57,239 nt of DNA from Candidatus Zixiibacteriota bacterium (GTDB taxonomy: Bacteria; Zixibacteria; MSB-5A5; GN15; JAAZOE01), in the NCBI GenBank assembly GCA_043819555.1, contig JBDREQ010000053.1, positions 1 through 57,239 on the forward strand. Reading direction: 5' to 3'. Numbering within the stretch: the first letter of the stretch is position 1; every line of letters starts with the position of its first letter. Below the pieces are notes generated by a model that saw only the letters and a program-made list of their open reading frames with translations, was not told the DNA's origin and did not search any database. A program made the position numbers and the translations under genes. Shown here one piece after another: positions 23,586 to 54,690 of the stretch.

Positions 23586-25943
23586 TTATTTAAAATCAAA
23601 TGGCGGCGGACCATTTTTGAGGATATGGTTTATAAGATAAACAGCGTCGGCGACATCAACCGCGATATCAAAATTCGCGTCGCCCGATTCAATGGTTATT
23701 GGTGGAGTTCCACCCTTAAAAACATGATTAATTAAATATACTGCATCCCCAACATTTAGGTGACTATCATTATTCGCGTCTCCGCGCATAACGTCATAAA
23801 TGTATATAGCGCCACTATTAATAATAGGTGTAAACGAAACCTCCCCCGAGTTCATTTCAGGGCCGAATTGCCCGAGAGTCACGGTATCAATAATATTCGA
23901 CCGCCCGCCAATACTCAATGAATCAGTACCAATATAGATTTTTGCAATTGTCCCCGTGCCTGGCGGAATCGATTCAGTCGTCGAATAAATCCGATAAGCT
24001 TTCTTTTTGCCATCCGATGTGGCCGCCGTTTTCGTGACCGAAAATCCATCGGTACGCGTTCCACTGACTGAAATTGAATCAATCGTTAAATTTGTAATTG
24101 TTTTAGAAATGTCTATCGGAACCCTCATGCTCCATAAATCCAGGGAATTAGTGAGATCAACAGAAATAATCCCGATTTGACCGGCATACACGGAGTCAGT
24201 CGCATAGACCATAGTGTCGGCTAACGCAATAATGAAATTGTTTTCAATATCTGCTATATCACCCCATTCGGTAGTGATTGTCAGCGTCACGTCATATATG
24301 CCGGGAACATTATAAGAATGAGAAGGGTTTTGTATGTTTGATGTTGCCCCGTCGCCAAAATCCCAGTTCCATTGAGTCGCCTGCAAATCCGACATGTCAA
24401 AGAAATTTACATCAAACGGAACTTGTTCAGTAGTCTTATCAGCTACTATTTTTGCTCCCCATTCAATTGCTGAGCCAAGATCGATTATACCGTATCCGTA
24501 GTCATTGTCAGGAGTATTTGACTGGCTTGCCGTTTCAATTAAAGCCCTTCGGATTAGTTGCGGGGTGAAACCGGGCCTGGCAGAGAGCAGAACGGCGGCG
24601 CTGCCACCAGCCAGGGGACATGAGAGCGACGTGCCGTTTGCTGTCGTATATGCCGTCGTACCCGAAGGCGACGCGCAAAAAGTGGCAACTCCCCGTGCAC
24701 AAACTTCCGGCTTTATGCGGCCGTCATACGTGGGGCCACGCGATGAAAATCCGGCTATATAACCATGGCTGTCAACTGCCCCGACGGCCAGAATTTCAAA
24801 CGCGTCGGATGGGGGCAGCACGGAACCTGGGCCGGGGCCTTCATTACCCATTGAATTCGCTACTACGATGCCATAAGAAGTCGCCAGATTAGCCGCTATA
24901 GTAGTCACTGCTGTTTCGCCGTCTACGTCGGCATATACATACCAATCGATATAAGCAAGTGACGACGATATAACATCGGCTCCAATAGAATCCGCCCATT
25001 CGACTGCGGCCACCCAGTTATCCTCCTCAACCTGCGTTTCCGAACGGACATCTTCAGTCTTGGCCAATATAAATGAAGCCCCATAAGCGGGTCCGTATAA
25101 TATCCCTTCTTTGGCGCCGCCCAAAGTTGACCATGTATACGTGCCATGATTATGCTGATTCTGAGCGTCGTTTACCTCGTTTTGAGTATTTCCATCATTA
25201 AATACAAAATCCCATTCGGCCAGGACACGACCAGTATTAAAGGCATCTGCAAAAGCTTCATGATCTTTCCTAAAACCAGTATCAAACATGGCCACGATTA
25301 CGCCCTGCCCATTATATCCCTTTTCATGTACAGCAGGTACGTTAATCTGAACCAATTGATCCAGAGATTGGCCGTAATCCAGATAATAACTAGACTGAAG
25401 CCCATTCGGTATTATCGGATCTTTATGCTCTAAATCTATTTTTACCGGTTCCCGGATGTATTCCAATACCGGTCGGACTTTGGAAACAAATGGCAGGTTA
25501 TTAATCGCATCCACCAAATCCAAAGAAATCTCAAAACTGGCGGCATTTAGCCAGCGGGAAGACTTCCTCAATTTGCCTCCCAGAGATTCAACTCGGCCAA
25601 TATAATCAGAGGATACCTGAAGGTCCCCAAAAGTAATTTTATCCAGACCAACCTTAGCTCGGCGATTTCGAGCATTATCCGTTAGGGTAACAGATGCAGC
25701 CAATTTATCAAACTCATCTTTGGTTGAAATATTCTTATCAGTAAAAAACACCCAGATTTTGACAATATTGTTTTCCGCACGGGGTGTCAGATATGTTTTG
25801 ACAACTTCAATCTTGTTATCGATTTCCTTATCCGTAAAAATTGGTTCAGAATTCAAAACCGATTTTTGCGCAAGCGCGCCGGATGTTAAAATAAGGATGA
25901 CTATAAAAAAGAGCAAAAAATCAAATCGTCGGTTATACTTCAT
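23586..25943 (-). CDS. Exported S8 serine peptidase with PKD, cohesin-like and C-terminal dockerin-like domains
   Basis: D-H-S triad (FDTG, HGT, GTSLSCP); PKD WNWDFGDG..NPSHSY; duplicated GDANNDSHLNVGDAVYLIN / GDANFDIAVDVADAVYLIN. Confidence 0.9.
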   Translation of the reverse strand: MKYNRRFDFLLFFIVILILTSGALAQKSVLNSEPIFTDKEIDNKIEVVKTYLTPRAENNIVKIWVFFTDKNISTKDEFDKLAASVTLTDNARNRRAKVGLDKITFGDLQVSSDYIGRVESLGGKLRKSSRWLNAASFEISLDLVDAINNLPFVSKVRPVLEYIREPVKIDLEHKDPIIPNGLQSSYYLDYGQSLDQLVQINVPAVHEKGYNGQGVIVAMFDTGFRKDHEAFADAFNTGRVLAEWDFVFNDGNTQNEVNDAQNQHNHGTYTWSTLGGAKEGILYGPAYGASFILAKTEDVRSETQVEEDNWVAAVEWADSIGADVISSSLAYIDWYVYADVDGETAVTTIAANLATSYGIVVANSMGNEGPGPGSVLPPSDAFEILAVGAVDSHGYIAGFSSRGPTYDGRIKPEVCARGVATFCASPSGTTAYTTANGTSLSCPLAGGSAAVLLSARPGFTPQLIRRALIETASQSNTPDNDYGYGIIDLGSAIEWGAKIVADKTTEQVPFDVNFFDMSDLQATQWNWDFGDGATSNIQNPSHSYNVPGIYDVTLTITTEWGDIADIENNFIIALADTMVYATDSVYAGQIGIISVDLTNSLDLWSMRVPIDISKTITNLTIDSISVSGTRTDGFSVTKTAATSDGKKKAYRIYSTTESIPPGTGTIAKIYIGTDSLSIGGRSNIIDTVTLGQFGPEMNSGEVSFTPIINSGAIYIYDVMRGDANNDSHLNVGDAVYLINHVFKGGTPPITIESGDANFDIAVDVADAVYLINHILKNGPPPFDFK

Positions 25944-26257
25944 AATATCCACCTTTTTGGTTGCACCATATTATATTCAATTATTTCTTTTGGCCAAGCT
26001 TTTATTTTATAACCGACAAGAATTATGATTTTGTTCCGAATAGTGACTTATTATTTAATCACAAAATAATGGCGATTGCCGCGGTTGCAAATATAGAACC
26101 AATAAATAGGTAAATGTCCACAAGTGTGGGATTGTCGCAATATATTTTTGGCATATTTGATAATCTTCGCTAATGGCATTATTTATATATCATGCATAAT
26201 GCGTTGTATGGCAATTAGATAAATGGAATGTGGAATAGCGGGAGATTGATTGGCTGA

Positions 26258-26330: not shown

Positions 26331-26834
26331 ATGAAGAAAATTAGACAAATCAGAGGAATCACAATGGTCGAAATGATGGTAATCGTGGTTATAATCGGTA
26401 TTATCTCGGCCATGGCACTACCTCGCTTTAAGATTACAATTGATCGACTCAAGTTTAAAACAGCTACCAAAGAGATGCTCTCGACCATGAGATTGGCGAG
26501 ATCAAGCGCCATAACTCAAAAACAGCCATTTGGAGTGAATTTTGACGCCTCCAATATGACGGTTACGCTTTTTCAAGATATCGTCAATCAAGCGTCACAA
26601 TCTTTTGAGTCGGGCGATTCAGTTATATATGTGGACACATTGCCTGATGATTGCTTTCTGGTGGCAACGACTTTCGGCGGTCAATCCCTTGTATATCAGC
26701 CCAATGGCTCTGCCTCGGCTTCAGGTTATGTCTGGCTTTTGTCTTATACAACCGACGATGATATTCATTTTGGGCTAATAAATGTATTGGCCTCAACGGG
26801 GCGGACTAAAGTCGATGGGATATATTACTATTAA
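26331..26834 (+). CDS. FimT/GspH-like minor pilin with class III prepilin signal
   Basis: RG|ITMVEMMVIVVIIGIISAMALP; LARSSAI; YQPNGSA. Confidence 0.88.
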   Translation: MKKIRQIRGITMVEMMVIVVIIGIISAMALPRFKITIDRLKFKTATKEMLSTMRLARSSAITQKQPFGVNFDASNMTVTLFQDIVNQASQSFESGDSVIYVDTLPDDCFLVATTFGGQSLVYQPNGSASASGYVWLLSYTTDDDIHFGLINVLASTGRTKVDGIYYY

Positions 26835-26867
26835 CAAAAAAAATGCTCCCTCCTTCTCATCCTCTGT

Positions 26868-26895
26868 AGGGCTCCGGATTAATTCGGAGCCCTTT
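26868..26895 (+). terminator. Intrinsic terminator after the pilin gene
   Basis: AGGGCTCCG-GATTAATT-CGGAGCCCT-TT. Confidence 0.7.
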
Positions 26896-26930
26896 AATAT
26901 ATTGATTTGAAATAAATTAGCAAAATAGGT

Positions 26931-27043
26931 TAAGAGTTAATCCCATAATGCCGAAAAAAATAAAAATTGAAACGTCGTGCAAAAATTTTGCCGGTAAAGC
27001 TTATGGCAAATTAAGGTAAATAAATTGACTCAAAAGACGATAT
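26931..27043 (+). promoter_or_regulatory. Two tandem sigma28-like promoter matches upstream of pilM
   Basis: TAAG-N15-GCCGAAAA (26931-26957) and TAAA-N15-GACGATAT (27017-27043). Confidence 0.45.
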
Positions 27044-27084
27044 AGAGATAGAATAAAACACAGTCTAACATAAGAAGAGAGGCC

Positions 27085-28137
27085 ATGATATTTTCACGAG
27101 GTAGCAAGAGTTTGATTGGGCTTGATGTCGGGGCCAACTCGATAAAACTGGTAAAGCTTAATCATACAAAGAACGGCTATGCGGTCGATGCCCTGGCGAT
27201 GCGTGAATTGCCGCCTGAGGCAATCGTATCCGATGAAATTCGGGATCGCGAAGCGGTTATTTTCAGTATTCAATCCGTTATGGATGAATGTGAAACGGGC
27301 ACCAAAAATGTTGTTGTCGGATTATCAGGCCATTCATTGATAACCGATAAGCTGGTCATCGATAAAAAAACGGGAGCTGAGGCGGAGCAGGCAATATTAT
27401 TTGAGGCCGAGCAGAGATCTCCATTTGATGTGGAAGATGTCGCTCTTGACCATCATGTTATTCGCATAAACGAGGAAACCAATAAAATGGAAGTCTTATT
27501 GGTAGCGGCGAGAAAAGAGTATTTACAACAATACCTCGAACTCATTATGGATTGCGGTTTGAATCCGGTAATTGTTGATACTGACGCTTTCGCTGTTTAC
27601 AACGCTTATGTTAATAACTATGAAGTCGATCCCGGCAAAACTACCGCCCTGGTCAATATTGGACAGGATATAACCAGTATTCTGTATATTTATCAGGGTA
27701 GTTATCATTCGACCCGAGATATCGCGATCGGCACCCGCTCCATCTTTAATTCCATTCAACAGGAATTCAGGCTGAACCATGAATTGACCAGTAAAGCTAT
27801 AAGAGGCGAAATGCAGGGATCAATTGACCAGGATATGCTCAAGGCTACGGTTATTTCGTCCTCCGAAGAAATAATTAATGGGCTGGAATTGGCCTTCAAC
27901 TATTTCAAATCCCAATCAAGGGCTGAAATGATTGACTGGATGGTTGTCTCAGGAGGAGGTGCTTTATTGCCATATCTGCCCGAATACATGCAGTCAAAAC
28001 TTCAAATCCCTCTGGAAATATTTAATCCCCTCAGGAATGTGGAATATGACCCCGAGAGATTAATGGGCCTTGAACTCGAAAAAATCGCTCCTCTCCTGGC
28101 TGTGCCGATTGGAATGGCGATGAGGAAGGCGGTGTAG
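27085..28137 (+). CDS. pilM: Type IV pilus assembly protein PilM
   Basis: IGLDVGANSIKLV actin-like motif, EAEQRSPF, VLLVAARKE, VSGGGA, IGMAMR. Confidence 0.93.
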   Translation: MIFSRGSKSLIGLDVGANSIKLVKLNHTKNGYAVDALAMRELPPEAIVSDEIRDREAVIFSIQSVMDECETGTKNVVVGLSGHSLITDKLVIDKKTGAEAEQAILFEAEQRSPFDVEDVALDHHVIRINEETNKMEVLLVAARKEYLQQYLELIMDCGLNPVIVDTDAFAVYNAYVNNYEVDPGKTTALVNIGQDITSILYIYQGSYHSTRDIAIGTRSIFNSIQQEFRLNHELTSKAIRGEMQGSIDQDMLKATVISSSEEIINGLELAFNYFKSQSRAEMIDWMVVSGGGALLPYLPEYMQSKLQIPLEIFNPLRNVEYDPERLMGLELEKIAPLLAVPIGMAMRKAV

Positions 28138-28140
28138 ATT

Positions 28141-28815
28141 ATGGAAATGATTAAAATAAATCTGCTGCCAAAGGAATTTAGAAAGAAAACCGGTCGATTA
28201 TCGTTAGGCAAAAAAGGATATTATGCCGTTGGCGCCGCAACTGGCGTTATTATTATGATCGCGGTTATTACATTTTATCAGATGGCTCAGGTAAGCGAGC
28301 TTAATGACAAAATGGAAATCGCGAAATTTCGAACACAGCAATTGAGAAAAGACATTGCCGTTGTTGACGCGCTTATAGATGTTAAAGAAAAAATTGTTAA
28401 ACGCATGGAAGCGATTGATAGACTCGACCAGCACCGCACGGTTTGGGTCAGAATTCTGGAAGATGTTTCTCGGCAGATTCCGGAATTTATGTGGTTATCG
28501 ACCTTTAAAGAAGAGGTCGCCAAAAATCCGGCGCCGAACGATACGACATCCAAAGCGCAATTACCAGCCATGACCCGGCCAGTAAAAATCGAGGGGTATG
28601 CGTTTACATTAAATTCCCTGGCCAATTTCATGATAAAAGTTATGCGTTCTGATTTTTTCAGTGATATTGAGATGGCCTCGACTGAGGAAGTTCAATTTCA
28701 GGAGCAAAAGGCTTACACATTTAAAATTACCGCCACTTTGCATTATTTGTCTGATGAAGAGCTCAAAAGGCTTCTGGAAGAGGAATCCGGTCCAAAACTC
28801 TTGGCCGGTTTTTAG
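28141..28815 (+). CDS. pilN: Type IV pilus assembly protein PilN
   Basis: IKINLLP, TM helix, coiled coil, IPEFMWL, IEGYA. Confidence 0.9.
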   Translation: MEMIKINLLPKEFRKKTGRLSLGKKGYYAVGAATGVIIMIAVITFYQMAQVSELNDKMEIAKFRTQQLRKDIAVVDALIDVKEKIVKRMEAIDRLDQHRTVWVRILEDVSRQIPEFMWLSTFKEEVAKNPAPNDTTSKAQLPAMTRPVKIEGYAFTLNSLANFMIKVMRSDFFSDIEMASTEEVQFQEQKAYTFKITATLHYLSDEELKRLLEEESGPKLLAGF

Positions 28816-28830
28816 AGGAGATCACAGGAG

Positions 28831-29433
28831 ATGGATTTCAAGGACCCCAAGGTTCAAAAAATAGCATTGGTTTGCGTTGTCTTTTTTATTCTTATCTATT
28901 TCTGGTACTCAAGGGTTTATACGCCCCAAACCAGTCAGATTGAATCCAAACAACGCGAATACCAAACAATGATTACCAATCTGCGCAATGTTGAGATGAA
29001 ATCAAAATCTCTTGAAGCATTGCAGGCCGAATATGAATCATTGTTATCAAAATATCGGGATATCGAGCAACTCTTGCCGGAAGTCAAAATGGTGCCGTCA
29101 TTTTTGGTTCAATTGCATACGGCGTCGTCTCTGACGGGAACCAAGATTACCTCGATCGAGCCGCAGGAAACTCAATCCGAGTCCTTTTATAATGTGGCCA
29201 GTTATGATATTGAGCTTGAAGGAGGATTTCATGAATTTGGCAAATTTATAAGTTATATCGCCAACTTCCCCTTTATCGTCAATGTCAGTAATGTCAAACT
29301 GGAAGCGACCACGGCTGCCAACCTTGGTGCCGAATCGGATAAGGATAATGAAGAGGTCACCATGAAGGCTTTCTTTACGCTGTCTACATATTATGTCAAG
29401 GCTGAAGAAAGACTCAAAGAGCTTGAATTATAA
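28831..29433 (+). CDS. pilO: Type IV pilus assembly protein PilO
   Basis: TM plus coiled coil, QLLPEVKMVPSFL, GGFHEFGKFISYIANFPFIVNV. Confidence 0.9.
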   Translation: MDFKDPKVQKIALVCVVFFILIYFWYSRVYTPQTSQIESKQREYQTMITNLRNVEMKSKSLEALQAEYESLLSKYRDIEQLLPEVKMVPSFLVQLHTASSLTGTKITSIEPQETQSESFYNVASYDIELEGGFHEFGKFISYIANFPFIVNVSNVKLEATTAANLGAESDKDNEEVTMKAFFTLSTYYVKAEERLKELEL

Positions 29434-29449
29434 ACGGAGAAAATCGACC

Positions 29450-31375
29450 ATGTCGAGTACATACAAAATCTCAGTATTGGCGTTGTTAATCGTAATAGTA
29501 TTTGCAGCCAGTATTTTTGCCGCACCGGCAAAAGTCGGCCGCTTGGGGTTATCCAAAGAAGCTAACTTTACGATTCTTACGATTGAAGCAGATAAACAGA
29601 TGCAGGTCGCTCATGAATCGGTTGAAGCCAAAGAAGGCAAACCGTTCAGAATTGTTATCGACTGTTTGGCGGCTCGGCATTCATTGCCCGATAAGTCGTA
29701 TCAGGATTTACCGACTTCGATAATTACTTCGATTCGCACCTCCCAATACGCGGTCGATCCCGAAGAAGTAGTTAGAATTGTTCTCGACCTGAAAGCCGAA
29801 TCCGTCTACCGGGTAGAATCAAAAGATAATACTGTTAGAATCTTGGTTTCCGACGCAGGGAATAAAGTGTTCAGCCAATGGTCAACGCCGCGTGCTACAG
29901 GATTCGCCGCGAAAATTGTCCCAAAAGCGGAAACGCCTGCTCTCGATAAAAATGTTAAGAAAACGGATACCAAAGCTAATTCGACCGATACGCCAAAGAT
30001 ACAATTAGTTCAGGGAAACAAGTCGATAGAATCAAAAAAGCAACAACTCACTCAAACAGAATCTAAGAATAAAAATAATTCGCAAATGAATGATTCACCC
30101 ATAGATAAAAAGCCGATTCCGTTACAGGAAAGGCTCGCTCTCGCCAAAGTAGATGAAACCAAGGGCATCAATAATAGTCCTGTAATTAATAATACTGAAT
30201 CAAAGCCGATGGCAAATGAATCCAAAAAAATGGCGGAAAAACCGAAACAGGCTAATGTTACAACATCAAAACTGACCGTAGTTTCACCTCAACCCCAGAA
30301 AGAAGCCGAAGTCCAAAAGAAATCGATTAAAACGGCCGAGATTAATACAACCATTAAAAATTCTAAGCCAAATATAAATGAACTAAAAAATGATTCGGTT
30401 AATCGGGCTTTGACATTTGCGGCAGCTCCTCAGAAAAAAGAAGTTCCGACTCCAGGCGATGCCCCGAAACCAAAAGAATCGGATAATAAAGACGTTCATA
30501 AGAATGCGGACGAAAAATCAAAGGCTCATGAAAAACAGACTGAAGTTGCGGCCACAAAGTCGGCAACATCTATGACTGTTGAGACTCCAAAGGTAACAGT
30601 AGTCCAGCAACCCCAGAAAACCGAGAAGCCCAAAGTGACCATCGCCGAGCAAAAACCGACCGAAGTTAAGCCAATGGTTACCGTGGCTCAAAAGGCCCAG
30701 AAAACCGAGAATCCCAAAGTGACCGTCGCCGAGCAAAAACCGACTGAAGTTAAGCCAAAAGTTGCCGTGGCGCAAAAACCCCAGGAAGTCGAAAAGCCCA
30801 AATTGACTGTCGCACAAGAAAAACAGATTGCCAATGATGCAAAGGCAAATCCGGCCCAGATCACGCAGGCCAAAAAGAATACTATATTGGCATCGCTGGA
30901 GCCTGAGAAACCAGCAACATCTACAAATGAATCTAAAGTTGAAAAGCAATCAGATAAAGAAGTAGAAAAGAAAGATCGTTCTCGTTTCCGCCGGGAATCA
31001 GCCAGGTCCGCAAAATACAAGCAGACCCAGGTCGTTCAATTTCCGCAAAGAATGGTAATCAAATATAATGGTTCTTCCACGCGCGACCCATTTGAAACTT
31101 TGATAGATGTTACCAAAAAGAATTTGGGCCCGGCTGATTTATCCAAAATTCCAAATATTGAAACTCTGAATTTGGTCGGAATAATCGAAGCGGCTCCGGG
31201 CGGCAAGGATGCCGCATTACTCGAAGATCTGGATGGTATCGGATATATCCTGAAAACAGGGGATAGGATTAAGAATGGATATGTGGGTCGAATTGACAAA
31301 CGAGCGGTTTATTTTCAGCTAAATGAATACGGCTGGAACCGAACCGTTACCAAACAATTGGAAAAAGAAAAATAA
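29450..31375 (+). CDS. AMIN-domain protein with long low-complexity linker and C-terminal PilP-like domain
   Basis: Signal peptide from ATG 29450 (GGAG SD); AMIN-like PFRIVID..IRTSQY..VVRIVLDL; C-terminal RDPF..LNLVGII..ALLED..GYILKTGDRIKNGYV in the pilP position. Confidence 0.75.
   Translation: MSSTYKISVLALLIVIVFAASIFAAPAKVGRLGLSKEANFTILTIEADKQMQVAHESVEAKEGKPFRIVIDCLAARHSLPDKSYQDLPTSIITSIRTSQYAVDPEEVVRIVLDLKAESVYRVESKDNTVRILVSDAGNKVFSQWSTPRATGFAAKIVPKAETPALDKNVKKTDTKANSTDTPKIQLVQGNKSIESKKQQLTQTESKNKNNSQMNDSPIDKKPIPLQERLALAKVDETKGINNSPVINNTESKPMANESKKMAEKPKQANVTTSKLTVVSPQPQKEAEVQKKSIKTAEINTTIKNSKPNINELKNDSVNRALTFAAAPQKKEVPTPGDAPKPKESDNKDVHKNADEKSKAHEKQTEVAATKSATSMTVETPKVTVVQQPQKTEKPKVTIAEQKPTEVKPMVTVAQKAQKTENPKVTVAEQKPTEVKPKVAVAQKPQEVEKPKLTVAQEKQIANDAKANPAQITQAKKNTILASLEPEKPATSTNESKVEKQSDKEVEKKDRSRFRRESARSAKYKQTQVVQFPQRMVIKYNGSSTRDPFETLIDVTKKNLGPADLSKIPNIETLNLVGIIEAAPGGKDAALLEDLDGIGYILKTGDRIKNGYVGRIDKRAVYFQLNEYGWNRTVTKQLEKEK
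30587..30820 (+). repeat. About six intragenic 14-aa (42 bp) repeats PKVTVAxQKPxxxK, alternating two variants
   Basis: PKVTVVQQPQKTEK / PKVTIAEQKPTEVK / PMVTVAQKAQKTEN / PKVTVAEQKPTEVK / PKVAVAQKPQEVEK / PKLTVAQEK. Confidence 0.85.
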
Positions 31376-31395
31376 TTATAGAGTGAGGTACTCCG

Positions 31396-32748
31396 ATGTG
31401 TAAAACCGGAAAAATTATACAGGTACTTTTTGGAATCATGATATTCATGACTTTTATGGTATCTATTTCCCTGGGACAATCCGGTGATGCGACCGAACCC
31501 ATAAAAACGCTTAATTATCAAGCAGCCGAGATTCGTTCGGTAATCCGCCATTTAGCGGATTACGGCAATATTAATGTCGTTGTGGCGCCTTCTGTATCTG
31601 GCAATGTTACTATAGCTTTGAAAGATGTAACGTGGCAGAATGCTCTCGAAATAATTGGCCGCACTTACGATTTGGCCATTGTTTTTGAGGAAGAAGAAGG
31701 TTACATAAGGGTTTTGCCGGCGGTCGATTACCGCAAGGAAGTCACCGAGGAAAAACAGCATGTCGTCGATCAGCGAAAACTTTCCGAACTGGAAACTCGA
31801 ATTCTTCGCATTAACAACTCAACATCGGAAAGCATAAAAGACGCCGTTCAGTCATTATTGACAGACAGAGGCAAGGCCACCGCCGATCCGCGCACTAATT
31901 CGATTATTCTTCAGGAGATTCCTGAAAATATCAATCGTGTGATTGAATATGTAAGTACTCTTGATCAACCTCCGCGGCAAATACGCATTTCGGCTCAGAT
32001 GCTGGAAATCAGTTCTCGTGAATTGACAGAATTTGGCATCGATTGGACTATGAATGGCGCCGGTGGTGATTTCACGACCGCCCCATCCGCGGATAATATG
32101 ATTCTTGATGGCGCCGCCGCGGGCGATGCCGTCGCCGAAGCCCGCCACCGGACATCACAAACATTGAATGATGTTGCAAGGCCGTCCGGTCAGTTCTGGA
32201 CAAGGATCATACAAGATGATTGGGATCTGGAAGCTGCTGTGTCTGCCCTGGTTTCAGAAGGTCGTGGAAAGATCATCGCTCATCCGGAAATCACGACAAT
32301 CGACAATCAAGAAGCCAATATCCAGATGGGTCAAAAAGTCCCGATTAAGCAGTTCGATCAAAATGGAAACACCGTAATCAGTTTTGAAGAAGTTGGAACA
32401 ATATTGACTGTAACGCCTCATATTACATCGAATGACAAAATCCTGATGCATATGACCCCGGAACGATCGACTTATGAGTTTGATCCCAACGGTGTTATTA
32501 TTAATACCAGTAATGCCGAAACCAACGTCGTTGTCCAAAATGGCCAGACGGCGGTTATTGGCGGTTTGACAACGCAGGATGAAGTAGAGACAGAGGTAGG
32601 AATTCCAATTCTGAAAGACATTCCCTTATTGGGTGCGCTGTTCAGCTATAATAAGAAAGAAATTATTAACCGCGATCTGGTTATTTTTGTGACCCCGACA
32701 ATAGTAGAAGACTTCGCCGCGGTTAGTAATGAAATAGATGTTCCGTAA
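31396..32748 (+). CDS. pilQ: Type IV pilus secretin PilQ (short, no AMIN domains)
   Basis: LKDVTWQNAL, DPRTNSII, QIRISAQMLE, PEITTIDNQEANI, IPILKDIPLLGALF, LVIFVTPTI. Confidence 0.9.
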   Translation: MCKTGKIIQVLFGIMIFMTFMVSISLGQSGDATEPIKTLNYQAAEIRSVIRHLADYGNINVVVAPSVSGNVTIALKDVTWQNALEIIGRTYDLAIVFEEEEGYIRVLPAVDYRKEVTEEKQHVVDQRKLSELETRILRINNSTSESIKDAVQSLLTDRGKATADPRTNSIILQEIPENINRVIEYVSTLDQPPRQIRISAQMLEISSRELTEFGIDWTMNGAGGDFTTAPSADNMILDGAAAGDAVAEARHRTSQTLNDVARPSGQFWTRIIQDDWDLEAAVSALVSEGRGKIIAHPEITTIDNQEANIQMGQKVPIKQFDQNGNTVISFEEVGTILTVTPHITSNDKILMHMTPERSTYEFDPNGVIINTSNAETNVVVQNGQTAVIGGLTTQDEVETEVGIPILKDIPLLGALFSYNKKEIINRDLVIFVTPTIVEDFAAVSNEIDVP

Positions 32749-32762
32749 AGGAAAGAAGTTTT

Positions 32763-32791
32763 ACCCCCGGATTTATAAATCCGGGGGTTTT
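32763..32791 (+). terminator. Hairpin/terminator between pilQ and the Ig-like lipoprotein gene
   Basis: ACCCCCGGATTT-AT-AAATCCGGGGGT-TTT. Confidence 0.75.
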
Positions 32792-32845
32792 GCGATGAAC
32801 ACTTTCGAATTGTAAAATATGAATCACAAATTAGAGGGAGGCGAC

Positions 32846-36737: not shown

Positions 36738-36739
36738 TT

Positions 36740-39508: not shown

Positions 39509-39836
39509 CCGTTCACACTCCTCATGGCCCACGGCATATTCTGTCTCCTTATTTTTGAATACAAAATACACCAAAAGTGTAAACCATGTCATGATACACA
39601 TTGTAAAGTATCTCATGATACTATACAGTCCTCGTCTGCCCCATTATTAAGCTGAGGAAACAAATCCATTTTACATGTATGGTTGCAATGCGAAAAAACC
39701 GTTCGTAAGTGCTTTATTCTAATTAAAAACTGCCGATACAATTCAAAAGGAAACGAATGTGCGAAAAATGCACACGAAATCGACGAATACGTAAAGCAAT
39801 AGCTCTATTAACCTACTTTTTCTTCAAGGAGGAACG

Positions 39837-40421: not shown

Positions 40422-40443
40422 ATGATTCCTAAAATAGTTATTC

Positions 40444-40476
40444 AAAACCCTCTGCCTTTTGACGGAGGGTTTTTTT
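40444..40476 (+). terminator. Intrinsic terminator
   Basis: AAAACCCTCTG-CCTTTTGA-CGGAGGGTTTTTTT. Confidence 0.75.
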
Positions 40477-40578
40477 GTTGCCCAAATTTATAAATACTGA
40501 TAAGCTATTCACATCGTAATACTTTGGTATCAATTCACTCATATATATTTTGGGTGGCGGTTTTAATAAGGAGGTAAA

Positions 40579-41106
40579 ATGAGAAAAGTAATTATTGTTT
40601 TCAGTCTGATATTTCTTTTTGCCGGTCTTGCCATGGGGCAGAGCGGAAAACCTTTTAGTATATATGCCGGAGGAGGTGTTTCAATACCTAAGGGTTTCGC
40701 CAGCGAGCTCTACAAGAACGGTTTTAATGGTATGGGAGCGATTTCTTATAAGGCTATGCCAGCCATGAAGTGGTTCGCCAAGGTCGAACTGAACTCATTC
40801 AAATCCGACAGCGCAATATATTTTGACGGTACAATAAATAATCTTCTATTAGGTATCGGTGGGATATTATCTCCTAAAATTTTAGATGCGCCGCTTAAAC
40901 CATTTGGCATTGCCGGGGTTGGCATCGCGTCGCTTAGCTCATCCGAAGGTGGAGAATCGGTATCCAAATTATATTTTGAATTCGGCGCCGGGGCAGAATT
41001 GGGTTCCGGATCGGCCTCGTTCTTTATAATGGCAAGGTATGTCACCATAGCAACTGAAGAGAAATCATTTAATTTCATTCCAATAACAGCGGGTATAAAG
41101 TTTTAA
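40579..41106 (+). CDS. Outer-membrane beta-barrel protein, paralog of the upstream gene
   Basis: Shares KPF..Y.G.GV, LYKNG..GM.AI, SK.YFE.GAGAE and C-terminal FIPITAGIKF. Confidence 0.82.
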   Translation: MRKVIIVFSLIFLFAGLAMGQSGKPFSIYAGGGVSIPKGFASELYKNGFNGMGAISYKAMPAMKWFAKVELNSFKSDSAIYFDGTINNLLLGIGGILSPKILDAPLKPFGIAGVGIASLSSSEGGESVSKLYFEFGAGAELGSGSASFFIMARYVTIATEEKSFNFIPITAGIKF

Positions 41107-45600: not shown

Positions 45601-48600
45601 TCAGACCCAGGTAACGGTAACGTTTGATAATAATCCGCCGGTCTGCAATATTCCAGGGGACGCTTCGTATTTCGTCTGCGGAGATACGACTTTTAATTTC
45701 TCGGTATCCGCGACCGATCCCGATGGCAACTTAACTGGCTGTACCAAGATTTCCGGCCCGGGAAGTTATGACGGCAGTACCTGGACGTTTACGACGACTG
45801 CTCCGGGCGTATATACGGCGACTTTCGAATGCAGCGATGATTGCGGTTTAACTTGCGGCGGAACGGTTAATATAACAGTTGGATATAACAGCGCTCCGGT
45901 GTGTAATATCCCCGATGACGCATCATACTTCGTTTGTGGAGATACAACTTTTAATATCCCGGTGTCGGCGACTGACGTTGACGGCAATCTGGTTGGCTGT
46001 ACCAAGACTTCCGGTCCGGGCAGTTTTGATGGCAGTACCTGGACGTTTACCACGACTGCTCCGGGTGTATATACGGCAACGTTTGAATGTTCAGATGAAT
46101 GCGGAGAGGTTTGCGGAGGGACGGTCAATATCACGGTTGGATACAACAGCGCTCCCGTATGCGAATTGCCGACTCCCGAAAAATGTGATTATTATATTTG
46201 TCAGGATACGACTTTTAATATAGAAATATCAGCTACTGATGTTGATGATAACTTAGTTGGTTGTACAAAGACTTCCGGCCCCGGTAGTTTTGATGGCAGT
46301 ATCTGGACCTTCGATGTTACAGCGTCCGGCACATTTACGGCGACTTTTGAATGTGTTGATGAATGCGGTGAAATCTGCGGCGGTACGGTTGTTATAACAG
46401 TCGCTAAGAATCAGCCGCCAGTTGCTTCGTGTCCCGGTAATGAATCGCATTCATTCCTGTGCGAGCCATCAGAGATTTGCGTTTCCGGATTTTCATCCGC
46501 TGACCCAGATAACAATATAGTAGAGGAATCGGTTAGTCTTGGAACTCTCACCGATGGAACGGTTTGCTTCACCCCAGATGCTCCGGGAGTTTATACGATA
46601 ATTTATACAGTTACCGATGCCTGCGGTAAGACCGATGAATGTCAGACGCAAGTGACGGTCTCATTTGATAATAATTCACCGGTATGTGATTTGCCTTCGA
46701 ACGGAACTTATTTTGTCTGCGCAGATACGACTTTTAATTTCTCGGTATCAGCGACCGATCCTGACGATAATCTGGTTGGGTGTGAAATGACATCAGGCTC
46801 CGGAATTCTGAATGGCGGTATCTGGACATTTACGACAACCGGTCCGGGTGTTTATTCGGCAACATTTGAATGCAGCGATGATTGCGGATTGACTTGCGGT
46901 GGAACTGTCGAAATTACTGTTAATTACAATCAGGCCCCGGTTGTATCATGTCCCGGCAATGAAACATTCCAATTCGCATGCGAACCTGGCGAAATCTGTG
47001 TAGGACCGTTTAGCGCGACAGATGCCGATAATAACACCGTGGACGAGGTCGTTGATCTGGGTACTTTGACAGACGGAACGGTTTGCTTTACGCCGACATC
47101 GGCAGGGGTTTATACCATAACTTACACTGTCACTGATGCCTGTGGCACAACATCTGAGTGTCAAACAGAAGTAACTGTTGAGCTTGGCAATCAACCGCCG
47201 GTTTGCGATCTCCCAGCCAATACAACATACTTTATCTGTGGCGATTCAACTTTCAATTTTGAAATATCGGCCACCGATCCTGATGATAATCTAGCTGGGT
47301 GTGAAATGACTTCCGGAGATGGCAGTTTTGACGGTACAACCTGGACTTTCACGGCGACCACGGCGGGACAGTATTCAGCGACATTTGAATGCACCGATGA
47401 ATGCGGTTTGACATGCGGCGGAATGGTAACTATGACAATTCAGATGAATAATCCGCCGCCCTGTGATCTACCGCAAAGCGCCTCTTATTTTGTATGCGAT
47501 GATACGACATTCAGTTTCCCTGTTTCCGCGACCGATCCTGACGGAAACCTGGTCGGATGCGAGAAGACCTCTGGTGTCGGAACTCTGATTGATGGCATTT
47601 GGTCATTCACGACAACTGGTCCGGGAACTTATTCTGCTTCGTTTGAATGTAGCGATGCATGCGGCGAGACTTGCGGCGGCTCTGTAGATATAACCGTTAC
47701 ATATAATAATGATCCTGTGGCGACGGTTCCTAATCCGATGACTATGAACGTGTGTACATTGTCGGAGTTAGTCATTGGAGGATTCTCATGTTCAGATCCT
47801 GATGGTAATCTGGCACGGTGTGAAACAGATGTTGGTACATATAGTAATGGCGAGGTAAGATTCACTCCTGTCGCAGGCGCAAATGTTATAACACTGTTTG
47901 CGGTCGATGAATGCGGTATGGTTGATTCTGCCAAAACCACGGTGACTATTAATCTGAATCATACGCCTACATGCGATATAATTAATCATGAATATTTCCA
48001 ATGTGTACCAAGTCAGGTTTGCGAACCTAAAGTAGCAACCGATCCTGATGGTGATATAACGATTGGTGAAATTATCTTAGGTCCGGGCGTTTTTGAGAAT
48101 GGCCAATGGTGCTATACGCCGGAAGGTAGTGAAACTGTTGAAGTAACTATTCGATTCACAGATATGTGCGGCGCTTATTGCGATGGCACTTTCACGGCAG
48201 AATTTAATATAAATGATGGTCCCGTTGCTTCCTGTCCCGGCAATCAAACCAAGTACCTATTCAGTTTGGGTGAGATTTGTGTCGATGGTCTTGAATGCAG
48301 TGATCCCGATGATAATCTAACCAGTTGCCAGATTTTGGTTAATGGTGCCAGTGAAACTTTGGTTGATGGTACTGTATGTTTCGACCCGGTCTGGGGCGAT
48401 AATATTATCGAATTAACAGCCACCGATGCCTGTGGACAATCAGCGACTTGTCAAACAGTGATTACCGTCGAAGAATTATATGAGTGTCCAATTGTCAAAA
48501 TTGAAAAAACGCATAATACTCTGCAAGGTCATTACACCAATGTTGAAGTCACTATAGAAAATGGCAATTTTGATTTGGCCGGTTTTGATCTGTTATTGTC

Positions 48601-49972
48601 TTATGATGCGTCTGCTCTTTCATTCATAAATGCCGAAGCGGGTGACTTGCTCCAATATTGCGGTTGGGAGCACTTCTCGTATCGTTTCGGTTCCAGAGGC
48701 AATTGTGGAGGTTCTTGTCCTTCCGGACTACTCAGAATAATCGGTTTGGCGGAAACGAATAATGGCTCTCTACATCCCGACTGTTTTGGCGCGCCCACCG
48801 GTGATCCGTGGCAATTGGCAGTGTTGACTTTCTTTGTTTCCAATGACCGCACCTTTAACTGCATGTATGCCCCGATTAAATTCTTCTGGGACGATTGCGG
48901 AGATAACGCCTTGTCGAATATCACCGGCGATAGCCTGATAATCGGCGGCAGGATTTATGATTTTGAAGGCAATCTTATCTGGGATGAACTCGATGATATA
49001 AATTATCCCGAAAATGATCGTATTCCGTTCACCGGGACTCCTGATTTGTGTGGAAACGAAGGAAAGTATCCCCCTATCCGATGCGTTGATTATGTGTATG
49101 GCGGGATCGATATTGTATGTTCAGATTCAATCGATGATCGCGGCGATGTAAATATGAATGGATTGCCCAACGAAGTTGCCGATGCGGTAATGTTAACCAA
49201 CTACTTTATTGGCGGTTTGACAGCCTTTGGTAATCACAGTGAAGCATCGATCGCCGCATCTGATGTCAATGCCGATGGAGTATCGCTAACGGTTGCTGAC
49301 CTGGTTTACCTCGTCCGAATAATTACCGGTGATACCAGCCCAATATTAAAGCCAATCTTAAGATCAGAATTCAATATAACCTCGCATATGCGGGAAGATC
49401 GAATCGATATCAAGTATGATTCTGAAACTAAGGCAGGAGCGGCGTTACTCATATTTGAGACATTGGGGAATGCGGGTATACCAATACTTGGCGAAGGCGC
49501 CGAAAATATGGATATGACATACGGCGTCGAAGGCAATCAGTTGCGGGTATTGATTTATAATATTGGTTCACAATCGATATCATCTGGTGTTAACACACTA
49601 TTATCAATCCCGGCCGAGGGTTCGATAACTTTGATTGACGCCGAGATTGCCGATTATTTTGGCGGAATGATGACAACAAACCTAAAAACAATTCCGGATA
49701 ATTTCCGGTTAAGCCAGAATTATCCGAATCCATTTAATCCTTCAACATCTATAAGTCTATCAATGGCTGTACCGGGCAATTGGAGCATTGCTGTTTACAA
49801 TATCGCCGGTCAGAAAATCCGGGAGTATTCCGGATATTCAGAGGCTGGCATTGTATCAGTAACCTGGGACGGTTCGGACGAAAGCGGCCGCAAAGTGGCT
49901 TCCGGAATCTACTTATACAAAGCTGTTAGCGGCGACTTTAATGCCACGCGAAAGATGGTGTTGATGAAGTAA
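42659..49972 (+). CDS. Giant exported Cys-rich repeat protein with cohesin-like, dockerin-like and FlgD/T9SS-type C-terminal domains
   Basis: Signal peptide (SVFA|G); 17 tandem ~85-aa modules; AGFDLLLSYD cohesin-like segment; RGDVNMNG..VADAVML / ASDVNADG..VADLVYL; LSQNYPNPFNPST...WDG..SGIYLY..KMVLMK. Confidence 0.85.
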   Translation: MLGFHSIGRKFSPPICKCRTKGFLILICTCLLFFSGSVFAGEIFTHAPEYPPSEDAVIEGTYWANEKVTLQVTHLDGTLLTGPGGDPWEADATYDESNAAPVKESGGFLTYWNVDWAYAGDTLMITAEGNESGTTATASFVSPKTSLNQLHNGTFTSNAAWANGNINSNNSCYSEGRSVAYRYFIKELDAGTEHFFTIQMEWTKGGIHALDYLTDYDATETDALFDVGGACGTMSTSPPPGCNDPTESFTFPDFLNTANYSGTIPPDFFTTVNPGFVLDGPRNLKAYNVIIDSIGDYAFGGTSSDRKLEMVVYFTVRTTSSVGFFWGGHLAESSADAWGAGYGSSAVGGAPYHMRAKSLDGGGGCNQDRSIQNGVICMPPNTGITMDFSTVCDVGNNMYIATDTASTANMWTWTITNGTIVGPDDQSSVSFTVNPGLGAGDFVTIMVESCDGTSGCPGESCCATDSKSIPVAVCNQPPVASCPDNESHSFLCTPSEICVGPFSASDPDNNIVSETVDFGVLNGGNVCFTPNAAGVYIITYTVTDAYGATDECQTEVTVSYVNQPPVCNIPGDASYLVCGDTTFNIPVSATDPDGNLTGCTKTSGPGTYDGSTWIFTTTAPGVYTATFECSDDCGEICGGTVNITVGYNSAPVCNIPSSGTYFVCSDTTFSFPVSANDVDGNLVSCIQKSGNGTFDGTNWTFTTTGPGAYSATFECTDECGEVCTGSVNINVNYNHNPVCNMPPHNSYFVCGDTTFNIPISATDVDGNLVGCTKLSGPGTFNGSTWTFTSSGDGTYIATFECTDECGSSCTGEAKVTVTNNKAPTPQCPDNQTIFVCDLSPITINGFICEDPNGNLATCEVDVGELVGDAVTFTPIEGPNVITITATDDCGAVGTCYTTVTVVLNGPPVASCPGNESHSFLCEPSEICVSGFSSSDPDNNIVEELVSLGTLTDGTVCFTPDAPGVYTIIYTVTDACGETDECQTQVTVTFDNNPPVCNIPGDASYFVCGDTTFNFSVSATDPDGNLTGCTKISGPGSYDGSTWTFTTTAPGVYTATFECSDDCGLTCGGTVNITVGYNSAPVCNIPDDASYFVCGDTTFNIPVSATDVDGNLVGCTKTSGPGSFDGSTWTFTTTAPGVYTATFECSDECGEVCGGTVNITVGYNSAPVCELPTPEKCDYYICQDTTFNIEISATDVDDNLVGCTKTSGPGSFDGSIWTFDVTASGTFTATFECVDECGEICGGTVVITVAKNQPPVASCPGNESHSFLCEPSEICVSGFSSADPDNNIVEESVSLGTLTDGTVCFTPDAPGVYTIIYTVTDACGKTDECQTQVTVSFDNNSPVCDLPSNGTYFVCADTTFNFSVSATDPDDNLVGCEMTSGSGILNGGIWTFTTTGPGVYSATFECSDDCGLTCGGTVEITVNYNQAPVVSCPGNETFQFACEPGEICVGPFSATDADNNTVDEVVDLGTLTDGTVCFTPTSAGVYTITYTVTDACGTTSECQTEVTVELGNQPPVCDLPANTTYFICGDSTFNFEISATDPDDNLAGCEMTSGDGSFDGTTWTFTATTAGQYSATFECTDECGLTCGGMVTMTIQMNNPPPCDLPQSASYFVCDDTTFSFPVSATDPDGNLVGCEKTSGVGTLIDGIWSFTTTGPGTYSASFECSDACGETCGGSVDITVTYNNDPVATVPNPMTMNVCTLSELVIGGFSCSDPDGNLARCETDVGTYSNGEVRFTPVAGANVITLFAVDECGMVDSAKTTVTINLNHTPTCDIINHEYFQCVPSQVCEPKVATDPDGDITIGEIILGPGVFENGQWCYTPEGSETVEVTIRFTDMCGAYCDGTFTAEFNINDGPVASCPGNQTKYLFSLGEICVDGLECSDPDDNLTSCQILVNGASETLVDGTVCFDPVWGDNIIELTATDACGQSATCQTVITVEELYECPIVKIEKTHNTLQGHYTNVEVTIENGNFDLAGFDLLLSYDASALSFINAEAGDLLQYCGWEHFSYRFGSRGNCGGSCPSGLLRIIGLAETNNGSLHPDCFGAPTGDPWQLAVLTFFVSNDRTFNCMYAPIKFFWDDCGDNALSNITGDSLIIGGRIYDFEGNLIWDELDDINYPENDRIPFTGTPDLCGNEGKYPPIRCVDYVYGGIDIVCSDSIDDRGDVNMNGLPNEVADAVMLTNYFIGGLTAFGNHSEASIAASDVNADGVSLTVADLVYLVRIITGDTSPILKPILRSEFNITSHMREDRIDIKYDSETKAGAALLIFETLGNAGIPILGEGAENMDMTYGVEGNQLRVLIYNIGSQSISSGVNTLLSIPAEGSITLIDAEIADYFGGMMTTNLKTIPDNFRLSQNYPNPFNPSTSISLSMAVPGNWSIAVYNIAGQKIREYSGYSEAGIVSVTWDGSDESGRKVASGIYLYKAVSGDFNATRKMVLMK
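44081..48480 (+). repeat. 17 intragenic Ig-like Cys-rich modules (order A B B B C A B B B A B A B B C D C)
   Basis: Type A NxPPVASCPxNESHSFLCEP..TDACG; type B NxAPVCxIP..YFVCGDTTF..FECxDxCGxxC; A2 and A3 nearly identical at DNA level. Confidence 0.9.
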
Positions 49973-52539: not shown

Positions 52540-52558
52540 TTGAGATGTTTTATGCCAG

Positions 52559-53074
52559 ATGATCAAATTAAAAGAAAAATACATACTGGCTAATTGCTGT
52601 TCTCCTCAGTTAAGCGATAGTATTACCGGTTATTTTAGCTATGATGACAAAATAAAAGTCCACCGCTCTGATTGTGGCAATCTTATTAAGGCGGATAAAT
52701 CCAGATTATTGGACTTGAGGTGGGATGAGATTTGCGAGGAAGAAGATTTTATCCCGAGTGATGATTTTGCGACTCTAACTAAGATTGATTTTCTCCTGAT
52801 GGAACACCACAAGAATTATGGTTTTGATTATTCGAGAAAGATAGCTTCAATGTACAAACTCGACAAGCAGGCTGTTTTTGAGAGTCATGCCAAATTGAGA
52901 GAGATGAAATTATTAGAGCGAGTCGAGCCGCGCATGATTCAATATCGTAAAAATATCGTCAAGGGAAAGTGGATAAAACATCGCAATCATACTTATTATG
53001 ATTTGACGGATAAGGGCAAGAAATACTATGATTATTTTATCAAACAATCAAAAGGGAGAAATAATAAATTCTAA
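52559..53074 (+). CDS. RelA/SpoT-type zinc-finger domain fused to DUF2250-like winged helix
   Basis: LANCCSP..DSITGY..IKVHRSDCGNL..RLLDLRW followed by GFDYSRKIA..LLERVE..KHRNHTYYDLTDKG. Confidence 0.7.
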   Translation: MIKLKEKYILANCCSPQLSDSITGYFSYDDKIKVHRSDCGNLIKADKSRLLDLRWDEICEEEDFIPSDDFATLTKIDFLLMEHHKNYGFDYSRKIASMYKLDKQAVFESHAKLREMKLLERVEPRMIQYRKNIVKGKWIKHRNHTYYDLTDKGKKYYDYFIKQSKGRNNKF

Positions 53075-54690
53075 TCGCATTCAGGGGGAGAGCCGCCTTT
53101 AAAAGTAAAATTTATTAAAAATACGGCATCGCCGACGTTTACTCGGCCATCGGAATTGGCATCAGCGGCTTCAGGATATTCAGGGGGAAGCCCGCCCTTG
53201 AAGATAAGATTTATGATAAATACGGCATCGCCAATGTTTACATCAGAATCGTTATTGGCATCACCGCAAACATATGGCGGAGGTATTGATAAAGATACAT
53301 CCAGTCTAATGCCATTATTCTCAGAAACGTCGATATCGTATATTATTAATGTATCATATCCAGCTGAAGTAAATTCAATATCATAAGTTCCCGGTTCAAT
53401 CATTCGGTGATAGTCGCCAACATCGGGGTCCGTAAACACTCGCGAGCTATCCAAATCACTATCATGGCTCGGTATTCGAATCGAGGCCAATAAGGGTAAA
53501 CCTGTTTGCTCATCTGTGACAACCCCTCGAATTCCAAATAGCGCGTTTTCAATATAATGTAGAAAGCTTGATCTGTTGTAGTTCCAGAATTCCAGGAGCA
53601 GTGATTCGGGCAGAAATTTAATGTCCGAAATTTCTATCAATACTTCCCGACATCCGTGCCAATAGTTCATATAATCCTGTCTGCCGCCGGTGATAGGATA
53701 CCAGGCATATCCATTGGTTATGCCATTGTTGCGGTCAGTCAAATAATTAGCCGGGGAGTAGTATTGGGCGGAATCGGCATAGTCGCGTGAGATATCGATA
53801 AACCAATTATCATCAGTGTGCAGGCGCGACCAGGTATCCCAGGGGTAATTGATGACTTCGGCGCCGCCATGGAAATTCACGGCAAGGCAAAACGATTGCG
53901 CCGCGGCAAGGTTCATCATCACCGTAGTTTCTGCTTGCCAACCGTTACCATCCGGGTGAGGGCCGTCGTCCGGGTCGGGATAGTTACGATTCAAATCAAC
54001 ACCCATAGCATTAAACCGAGTCGGAAGATAAATGGCATTATCACCGGTTGAATAGGTACCGTCGGGATTTGCCAGCGGATTTATCCAAATTTCACAACTG
54101 TCAACCAGTCGAGAAATCAGTTCATTATTCCCGTAATTTTGCAGGAGATAATCGATAAGCCGAAGCATAAGTACATAGCCGGTTGTTTCATCGCCATGCA
54201 TCGAACTCGTGAGGAATACCTCCGGTTCATCCTCCTCCAACTCAATATTATCCGAAATCCGAGCGACAAGGATTTGATGATCCATTACCGAAGAGCCGGC
54301 ATCAATAATCTGACAATATTCTGGGAAATCCGCCTGGAATTGATACATCATGGCCACGTAAGCAGGGTAAGTTGGGTAAACATCCCAATCAGCCATTGAG
54401 TTTTTATCCAGCCCCATTTTTGGTGAAAACAAACTGCCAGGGTGAGGAAGACTTTTATAAAAATATCCGCGATTCTCAAGATTGGCTAACTGTTGTGGCG
54501 TTCCATAAGCGAAGACCGTATTGCCTTTGATATTATCAATAGAAATCAATCTGGTTAACTCATTCAAATTGGTTTGGGAATCAACCTGTATCTCTATATA
54601 ATACTCGGATACGCCAGCGGAAATTGCCGTCGCAAAAACGAGCAGAACAATAATGGTTTGCAGAATATTCAATCTTGTGCCTCTGTTCAT
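53071..54690 (-). CDS. Exported M14 zinc carboxypeptidase with C-terminal dockerin-like domain
   Basis: MHGDE, NPDG, DLNRNYP, NFHGGA..NYPWD, GGRQDY; GDANNDSDVNIGDAVFIIN / ADANSDGRVNVGDAVFLIN. Confidence 0.92.
   Translation of the reverse strand: MNRGTRLNILQTIIVLLVFATAISAGVSEYYIEIQVDSQTNLNELTRLISIDNIKGNTVFAYGTPQQLANLENRGYFYKSLPHPGSLFSPKMGLDKNSMADWDVYPTYPAYVAMMYQFQADFPEYCQIIDAGSSVMDHQILVARISDNIELEEDEPEVFLTSSMHGDETTGYVLMLRLIDYLLQNYGNNELISRLVDSCEIWINPLANPDGTYSTGDNAIYLPTRFNAMGVDLNRNYPDPDDGPHPDGNGWQAETTVMMNLAAAQSFCLAVNFHGGAEVINYPWDTWSRLHTDDNWFIDISRDYADSAQYYSPANYLTDRNNGITNGYAWYPITGGRQDYMNYWHGCREVLIEISDIKFLPESLLLEFWNYNRSSFLHYIENALFGIRGVVTDEQTGLPLLASIRIPSHDSDLDSSRVFTDPDVGDYHRMIEPGTYDIEFTSAGYDTLIIYDIDVSENNGIRLDVSLSIPPPYVCGDANNDSDVNIGDAVFIINLIFKGGLPPEYPEAADANSDGRVNVGDAVFLINFTFKGGSPPECD

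Follow-up and report, generated by a model that had tools for sequence, protein, structure and literature searches.

Dockerin-tailed peptidases in a Candidatus Zixiibacteriota contig point to a probable general cohesin-dockerin anchoring system in a phylum with type IX secretion

Three genes on contig JBDREQ010000053.1 of a Candidatus Zixiibacteriota bacterium (assembly GCA_043819555.1) encode exported proteins with dockerins, the modules that pair with cohesins in the cellulosomes of Clostridia. The window, i.e., the whole stretch of 57,239 nucleotides that was analyzed, is contig C53 of a 3.35-Mb genome (79 contigs, 97% complete) that is labeled G000 here. Its RlmN is closest, at 59-62% identity, to one Ca. 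Zixiibacteriota record and two records that are labeled uncultured Ignavibacteriales, and by this one gene the host is probably a Zixibacterium. Two of the genes lie on the minus strand and encode an S8 serine endopeptidase (788 aa, 23586-25952) and an M14 zinc carboxypeptidase (539 aa, 53071-54690). The third lies on the plus strand and encodes a giant stalk protein of 2437 aa (42659-49972) that ends in a sorting tail of the type IX secretion system (T9SS). A preliminary description of this sequence had proposed a cellulosome-like system built around proteases. The genome-wide analysis points to a more general anchoring system.

The S8 protein is composed of a signal peptide, a propeptide, the catalytic domain (24489-25310, Pfam PF00082, E 1.2e-39, with D224, H269, and S442 present in the sequence), a PKD domain recognized by the domain scan (24228-24455), a cohesin-fold domain (23799-24221), and a class-A dockerin (23601-23786); it has no T9SS tail. 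The dockerin is found by Pfam Dockerin_1 at residues 724-778 (28 bits, cut-off 22.9), and the predicted structure of the tail superimposes on the dockerin 5m2o_B with a Z-score of 10.6 (root mean square deviation [rmsd] 1.7, 70 aligned residues). The M14 protein carries a signal peptide, the M14 domain with the catalytic residues H165, E168, H274, and E353 present in its sequence, a regulatory-like domain, and a class-A dockerin (53080-53265, Pfam at residues 476-527, 42.6 bits), again without a T9SS tail. Both dockerins consist of two repeats with Asp or Asn at the calcium-ligand positions 1, 3, 5, 9, and 12, followed by a helix, and the signature GDANND..xNxGDAVxxINxxFKGGxPP that had been read in the two tails is indeed common to both translations.

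The domain in front of the S8 dockerin (residues ~578-718) is missed by Pfam, and the S8 alignment found no cohesin in the PDB by sequence. Its AlphaFold2 model (30-row alignment, mean predicted local distance difference test [pLDDT] 94) matches solved cohesins, with 6kgc_A at Z 17.1, rmsd 2.3, and 136 aligned residues, and a profile comparison with the free cohesins of the genome gives an HHalign probability of 99.5%. The cohesin of the giant protein (residues ~1943-2152) reaches only E 0.017 in Pfam, and its model (34-row alignment, pLDDT 83) matches 4uyp_A at Z 16.4, rmsd 1.9, and 143 aligned residues. Foldseek is concordant with a cohesin fold for both segments, and cohesins fill the top rows in both searches. 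A chance resemblance of the two segments to cohesins is ruled out by these predicted folds; at the level of prediction, the segments that the preliminary description had called cohesin-like adopt the nine-stranded jelly-roll of cohesins.

In the giant protein, an N-terminal region without a match in Pfam, PDB-sequence, or Atlas searches (42779-44083), a candidate adhesive tip, is followed by 17 tandem Ig/cadherin-like repeats of ~86 aa each (44081-48481, Big_9 E 3.6e-51, 101 Cys in ~1460 aa). The C-terminal part comprises a class-B cohesin with Cys-rich insertions (48485-49114, six copies in the genome), a class-B dockerin (49139-49336, residues 2161-2226), a β-sandwich domain X (49367-49678, six copies) that is all-β in the model and is possibly a degenerate cohesin, and a T9SS type A C-terminal sorting domain (49688-49969). 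The sorting domain scores 46.9 bits against TIGR04183 (cut-off 23) and matches the C-terminal domain of PorU (6za2_B, 1056-1157) at Z 11.0; as had been noted, this PNPF tail occurs in only one open reading frame of the window. No catalytic domain was found in the giant protein by Pfam, PDB-sequence, or Atlas searches. Its dockerin is missed by Pfam but is recovered against the main dockerin profile of the genome (HHalign probability 95.9%, E 5.6e-9). The dockerin-like tails of all three proteins stand at the proposed places. The giant’s dockerin had been suspected to be a divergent subtype, and it does belong to a separate class with seven members in the genome; it has one extra residue in each calcium loop. 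In its model, the helices are seen at block pLDDT values of 47-82, and cohesin and tail domains took up the results of the fold searches. The profiles of cohesins A and B are likewise distant, with an HHalign probability of only 14.8%.

The three dockerin genes of the window were considered as one locus, and this was rejected. They sit on both strands with unrelated genes around them, and their number is within chance (1.28 expected from the genome-wide density, P of three or more = 0.14).

Across the genome, Pfam finds 61 dockerin matches and eight cohesin matches over the cut-off. Profiles built from the genome, of which the cohesin profile was seeded from the Pfam cohesin matches, find 75 dockerin proteins plus one of a third class, 22 type-A cohesin domains in 16 proteins, six type-B cohesins, and 57 T9SS-tail matches (including FlgD itself). 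The same profiles retrieve solved cohesins (best E 3e-7) and solved dockerins (best E 3.5e-11). Nine of the 75 dockerin proteins have a T9SS tail and 66 have none; in 60 of these 66, the dockerin lies within 20 aa of the C-terminus. A signal peptide is seen in 55/66 cargos versus 591/1308 background proteins by a crude, weak test. The secretion machinery is represented by PorU (622.6 bits, cut-off 420), whose gene adjoins a PorV-family gene, and by SprA, in line with the diderm host that had been supposed. With its signal peptide and type A C-terminal domain in a genome that has PorU, PorV, and SprA, the giant protein qualifies as a T9SS substrate.

The cargo of the dockerins is varied. Recognizable peptidases account for 17/75 proteins (S8 ×4, M28 ×5, C10 ×2, M6 ×2, M43, M1, M14, and trypsin-like), a lower bound because many cargos have no family. 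The other named proteins include many β-propellers, TSP3, PKD, and Ig-like proteins, and one C-type lectin, next to many unknowns. A glycoside hydrolase catalytic family was found in none of the 75 proteins (72 searched at E ≤ 1e-6, 27 again at 1e-3, three at 0.1), and no carbohydrate-binding module (CBM) family was found. Peptidases occur in 9/48 of the directly T9SS-tagged, tail-only proteins, and their shares among dockerin and tail proteins are similar (16/66 versus 9/47, Fisher p = 0.65). Since peptidases are about as common among the tail-only proteins, the dockerin is not a protease-specific tag, and the notion of a system built around proteases is not supported.

We propose, with a probability of roughly two in three, that the C-terminal dockerin is a general calcium-dependent anchoring tag, which would attach approximately 60 different exported proteins (peptidases, propellers, adhesin-like proteins, and unknowns) to a few cohesin carriers that are likely fixed to the outer surface by the T9SS. 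Calcium binding, cohesin-dockerin binding, partner assignment, surface location, and the crossing of the outer membrane by the cargo are inferred. Cargo would be exported by Sec, bind calcium, and dock on a cohesin, while the cohesin carrier would be secreted by the T9SS and attached by PorU. The S8 and M14 peptidases of the window would be ordinary cargo of this kit. The likely receptors are encoded on other contigs and would be the cohesins at the N-termini of two T9SS-tailed proteins, G000:C72:22173-24575 and C20:56800-60600. C48:9036-11351, which combines a cohesin, BACON repeats, and a dockerin, is a predicted extender that would lengthen the tether, and C48:8266-8790 would be a free cohesin. 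The tail-less cargo may cross the outer membrane through SprA together with its carrier or via one of three secretins.

The candidate receptors are singled out by their putative binding face. In eight genomes of the host’s family, the cohesins of C72:22173-24575 (N-terminus), C48:9036-11351, and C48:8266-8790 represent three paralogous families with a common putative face, at which identity is 0.69-0.73 versus 0.31-0.39 overall and 0.07-0.29 on the opposite sheet. The first cohesin of C20:56800 shares this face in part (0.46-0.49), and the cohesin of a frameshifted gene on C48 reaches 0.39-0.45. This frameshifted gene (C48:13874-18909, L127:13700-18735) encodes FG-GAP, BACON, cohesin, dockerin, and T9SS-tail domains and is split into frames of 1260 aa and 406 aa. 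Its relatives have a single frame of ~1680 aa, and the split is either an assembly error or a true frameshift. Separately, the contig ends at G000:C58:1-3771 and C24:1-1713 overlap by 141 identical bases, so they are probably two parts of a single gene, whose product would carry a T9SS tail and two cohesin-like domains.

The S8 cohesin is of another kind. It falls in a clade of 23 rows, all directly before a cargo dockerin (support 100/97), and the cohesin-dockerin ending is retained in 29/29 related loci. It does not have the common face: even among eight orthologs, its putative face is less conserved (0.25) than the domain overall (0.42), and the domain is likely a spacer or support, or has a separate specificity, rather than being a receptor for class-A dockerins. 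Such “pre-dockerin” cohesins were also tried as a single clade; this was rejected, as the arrangement changes eight times on the tree (bootstrap not settled), and only the 23-row S8 group is supported.

These domains bear on an explanation in which class-A dockerins are stand-alone calcium-binding or sorting tags that are read by something other than a cohesin, with the cohesins serving as spacers or binding only the adjacent dockerin. It would account for the 34/76 cohesin-like domains in four genomes that directly precede a dockerin in the same chain, including the clade of 23 with the S8 domain, and for a ratio of dockerins to receptor-type cohesins of approximately 10:1. Free cohesins do exist, however, among them cohesin-only proteins and proteins of a cohesin plus a T9SS tail, with a face that is conserved across paralogs. 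In addition, cohesins and dockerins are absent from the same genomes: class-A dockerins and type-A cohesins both occur in 118/121 genomes of the phylum (dockerins were counted among the best 48 scored per genome), and the same three, from two families, lack both (G065, G089, and G114). PorU is found in 121/121 genomes. On balance, stand-alone tags are unlikely.

The anchoring role of the dockerin is suggested by the ends of orthologous peptidases. In a 17-row M14 clade (support 100/100), 11 members end in a dockerin, two in a T9SS tail, and two in IPTL-CTERM, and two are cut by the end of the locus. Both T9SS-tailed members come from genomes without dockerins. Within the IPTL-CTERM pair, one member passes TIGR04174 and the other shows the motif without passing at 1e-5. 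Genomes of family f14 (L479, L481, and L507) carry IPTL-CTERM tails on M14 and S8 peptidases. Among 12 dockerin-poor genomes, the best S8 match has a T9SS tail in 11 and a weak dockerin match in one, whereas in five dockerin-rich controls it has a dockerin in three and a T9SS tail in two. T9SS-tail candidates number 24 per Mb in the four dockerin-poor families versus 14 in the other 15, as a comparison of rough proxy counts with a threshold chosen afterwards and families that are not independent. In terms of sequence, the dockerin takes the same slot as two known sorting signals, and because a T9SS tail or IPTL-CTERM stands in its place in some M14 orthologs, it is likely an anchoring tag.

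The same tails are relevant to the question of where the cargo is held. The pairs may bind in the periplasm or in released material such as matrix or vesicles, or the cargo may exit by a secretin and dock afterwards. The cargo has no T9SS tail of its own, the genome contains three secretin matches (none over the GspD cut-off), some orthologs carry IPTL-CTERM, and two cohesin-only proteins have no anchor. Against such a location, most cohesin carriers end in a T9SS tail, the PorU sortase is universal, and in dockerin-poor genomes the orthologs of the cargo bear a T9SS tail themselves. We consider this arrangement improbable.

A second line of evidence comes from the recognition residues of the dockerins, for which positions 10, 11, 17, and 18 have been published (PMC6780208). 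The window’s S8 dockerin carries the genome code V10-G11 and N17-H18. In four genomes, the consensus at positions 10/11 and 17/18 is VG/NH, IL/DY, LS/NY, and AV/variable, respectively, and 147/154 dockerins have their nearest neighbor in the same genome. The sets outside G000 consist of the dockerins that scored highest with the G000 profile, a bias that runs counter to this result. The two repeats of a dockerin are 0.54-0.82 identical at the code positions, which reflects internal symmetry. In eight genomes of the host’s family, the code is nearly constant. Orthologs of the S8 protein agree with the consensus of their own genome at 16, 17, and 14 of 20 code positions, but with the window’s S8 protein at only 7, 4, and 7. 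At the same time, the S8-type linker is kept in 13/22 parsed orthologs versus 3/106 other parsed dockerins. The code and linker counts rest on the 106/154 dockerins and 22/30 S8 orthologs that the repeat parser handled (7/32 in G031). The putative recognition residues are thus homogeneous in each genome and diverge from one lineage to the next. The match to the host code together with the kept S8 linker suggests that a shared partner selects these residues and that the dockerins were not simply copied as a whole.

A bolder proposal, which we regard as rather doubtful, treats the dockerin as an indirect T9SS signal with a lineage barcode. Cargo would bind a cohesin-plus-tail carrier in the periplasm, ride with it through SprA, and stay displayed. 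The recognition residues would change in step genome-wide, so that a cell’s own exoenzymes are kept from its neighbors, and the invariant second pair would cross-link anchors and giant stalks into a surface lattice.

The second pair is of class B and behaves differently from class A. A query with the giant’s cohesin B and dockerin B finds matches in 115/121 genomes of the phylum, and outside the genus the giant’s tail is 45-60% identical among the best 28 relatives aligned. The dockerin B motif is retained across families, while the class-A cargo dockerins change. The two modules also occur apart: dockerin B is on its own in a small protein of G000 (C33:34862-35458), cohesin B is on its own in proteins of G113, and a further G113 protein combines two cohesins B with a dockerin B and a dockerin A. 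By this pattern, class B looks like a second working cohesin-dockerin pair. In the giant, this pair would connect one anchor with another or hold a few class-B cargos. The T9SS-tailed proteins C20:56800-60600 and C29:101-7714 are the only ones with dockerins of a third class, next to which lie cohesins of a class of their own.

This conservation also bears on the idea of a dedicated protease complex, in which the endo- and exopeptidase dock on the giant protein of the window as their scaffold. Peptidases are the largest named enzyme class among the cargos, no glycoside hydrolase was found, and the giant does have a true cohesin fold and a T9SS tail. Yet approximately three-quarters of the cargos are not recognizable peptidases, and peptidases are equally frequent among the directly tagged proteins. 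The giant’s one cohesin keeps 45-60% identity between families, even where the recognition positions of the cargo dockerins are not the same. The genes do not form a cluster, and the best matches to S8 and to the giant are >2 Mb apart in G099, a genome on a single contig. The proposal that the giant is the peptidase scaffold is not supported, given its single cohesin of a phylum-conserved class and the location of the best candidate receptors on other contigs. The proposed side-by-side placement of the two peptidases on one scaffold gains no support either: in the assembly of 79 contigs, the highest number of cohesin-like domains per protein is four (C20:56800), of different classes, and no tandem array of equivalent receptor-type cohesins was found in a protein. 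A dedicated protease complex is accordingly very unlikely, and the giant most likely serves as an adhesin on a long stalk, with a conserved class-B pair of its own.

Several points weigh against the general anchoring tag that we favor. A protein with a receptor-type cohesin has just one of them, and the ~60 cargos would have to share the two intact carriers with a T9SS tail that were found, a third being frameshifted in this assembly. Some small cohesin-T9SS proteins and the solo cohesin on C3 have different faces. The conservation of the face is a lead and not proof because its 12 positions were hand-picked after the alignment had been seen, with a strand assignment based on cohesin structures. 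The search for the motor ring covered GldM and GldN, which were found in 0/21 genomes, but its controls gave no signal either; the phylum possibly has a T9SS with a different motor or none. IPTL-CTERM as an alternative tail may leave room for an inner-membrane or periplasmic location. Finally, the families are related, so that a single event or a few events may account for the co-loss and trade-off counts.

The surroundings of the three genes contain further features. A pilin gene and a pilM-N-O-P-Q operon (26331-34957) run divergently from the adjoining S8 gene, and S8 and secretin matches lie within ~10 kb of each other in many relatives, which could be plain synteny or a pilus-protease link. 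One protein of the pilus operon (29393-31375, 660 aa) belongs to no Pfam family, and its middle part is a long stretch of low complexity that is rich in Lys, Thr, and Gln. Two adjoining paralogous genes for small outer-membrane β-barrels (39837-41106) immediately precede the giant gene. Four tandem intergenic repeats of ~129 nt at 39000-39515 are 82-96% identical and have a short palindrome after a GTAG-like start; their folding z-score is only −1.6, and they presumably resemble repetitive extragenic palindromic (REP) elements or bacterial interspersed mosaic elements (BIME). A gene labeled by eye as TonB-dependent-receptor-like (9407-11598) is apparently split into frames of 456 aa and 263 aa and lies upstream of a two-component cluster. 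A tyrosine recombinase gene (56210-57239) runs off the contig end.

Cohesin-dockerin systems have been described in other diderms and in archaea. In Candidatus Stygibacter (Cloacimonadota), a cellulosome-like complex with a C-terminal-domain-anchored scaffoldin was inferred in silico (Williams et al. 2021, PMC8542988). It likewise belongs to a diderm and pairs S8 and other enzymes that have C-terminal dockerins with a cohesin protein that has a surface-attachment C-terminal domain. Stygibacter relies on one 3755-aa scaffoldin with tandem cohesins and CBM2/3, and its cargo includes GH18 and GH57; here, ~60 cargos face single-cohesin receptors, at least three dockerin classes exist, the system is phylum-wide, and no glycoside hydrolase or CBM was found. 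The “planctosome” of freshwater Planctomycetes, also an in silico proposal (Andrei et al. 2019, PMC6461901), would dock an M12B endopeptidase together with an M14 carboxypeptidase at the surface of a diderm, which is also what the preliminary description had in mind. It uses a lamin-tail-domain anchor and few components, whereas the present system has a T9SS anchor and peptidases are a minority of the cargo. The dockerin-bearing endo- and exopeptidases and the surface-anchored cohesin proteins of both are found here, but a mainly polymer-degrading cargo is not. In anaerobic methanotrophic (ANME) archaea, dockerin and cohesin expansions of untested function also point to a role outside cellulosomes and to a varied cargo (Chadwick et al. 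2022, PMC9012536); there, the envelope is archaeal, a scaffold has up to five cohesins, and the cargo often consists of substrate-binding proteins. Dockerin-rich giant proteins have been reported for Omnitrophota (bioRxiv 2023.11.21.568195).

The likeness to the type I cohesin-dockerin pairs of the clostridial cellulosome (PDB 6kgc, 4uyp, 5nrk, 2vn5, and 1ohz) lies in the folds, the duplicated calcium loops, the internal symmetry, and the lineage-specific residues 10/11/17/18. In cellulosomes, internal symmetry is described as permitting dual binding (PMC12484212), and an S8-containing protein with a terminal cohesin-dockerin unit is noted for Acetivibrio (PMC11557425). The present system differs in that no primary scaffoldin of many equal cohesins and no cellulases were found, that a T9SS tail takes the place of S-layer homology (SLH) or sortase anchors, and that the recognition helices are hydrophobic and do not carry a Ser/Thr and Lys/Arg code. 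It works like the docking layer of a cellulosome but is not a cellulosome. The type A sorting of Bacteroidota is matched by the tail, the sortase PorU, the PorV family, and SprA homologs; the differences are a second tier of cargo without a tail and the GldM/GldN result given above.

No paper was found that joins Zixibacteria with dockerins or type IX secretion in a search that left most subscription journals and survey supplements outside its reach. The surprise is limited, as publications on two other phyla have already put forward that cohesin-dockerin pairs dock peptidases at the surface of diderms. If the general anchoring tag is real, such pairing would be the principal means by which an entire uncultured phylum displays proteins at its surface, rather than a cellulose speciality, and it would be coupled to type IX secretion beyond the Bacteroidota. 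The small domain pairs named here and the lineage codes are directly testable and may supply many orthogonal plug-and-socket pairs for enzyme scaffolding.

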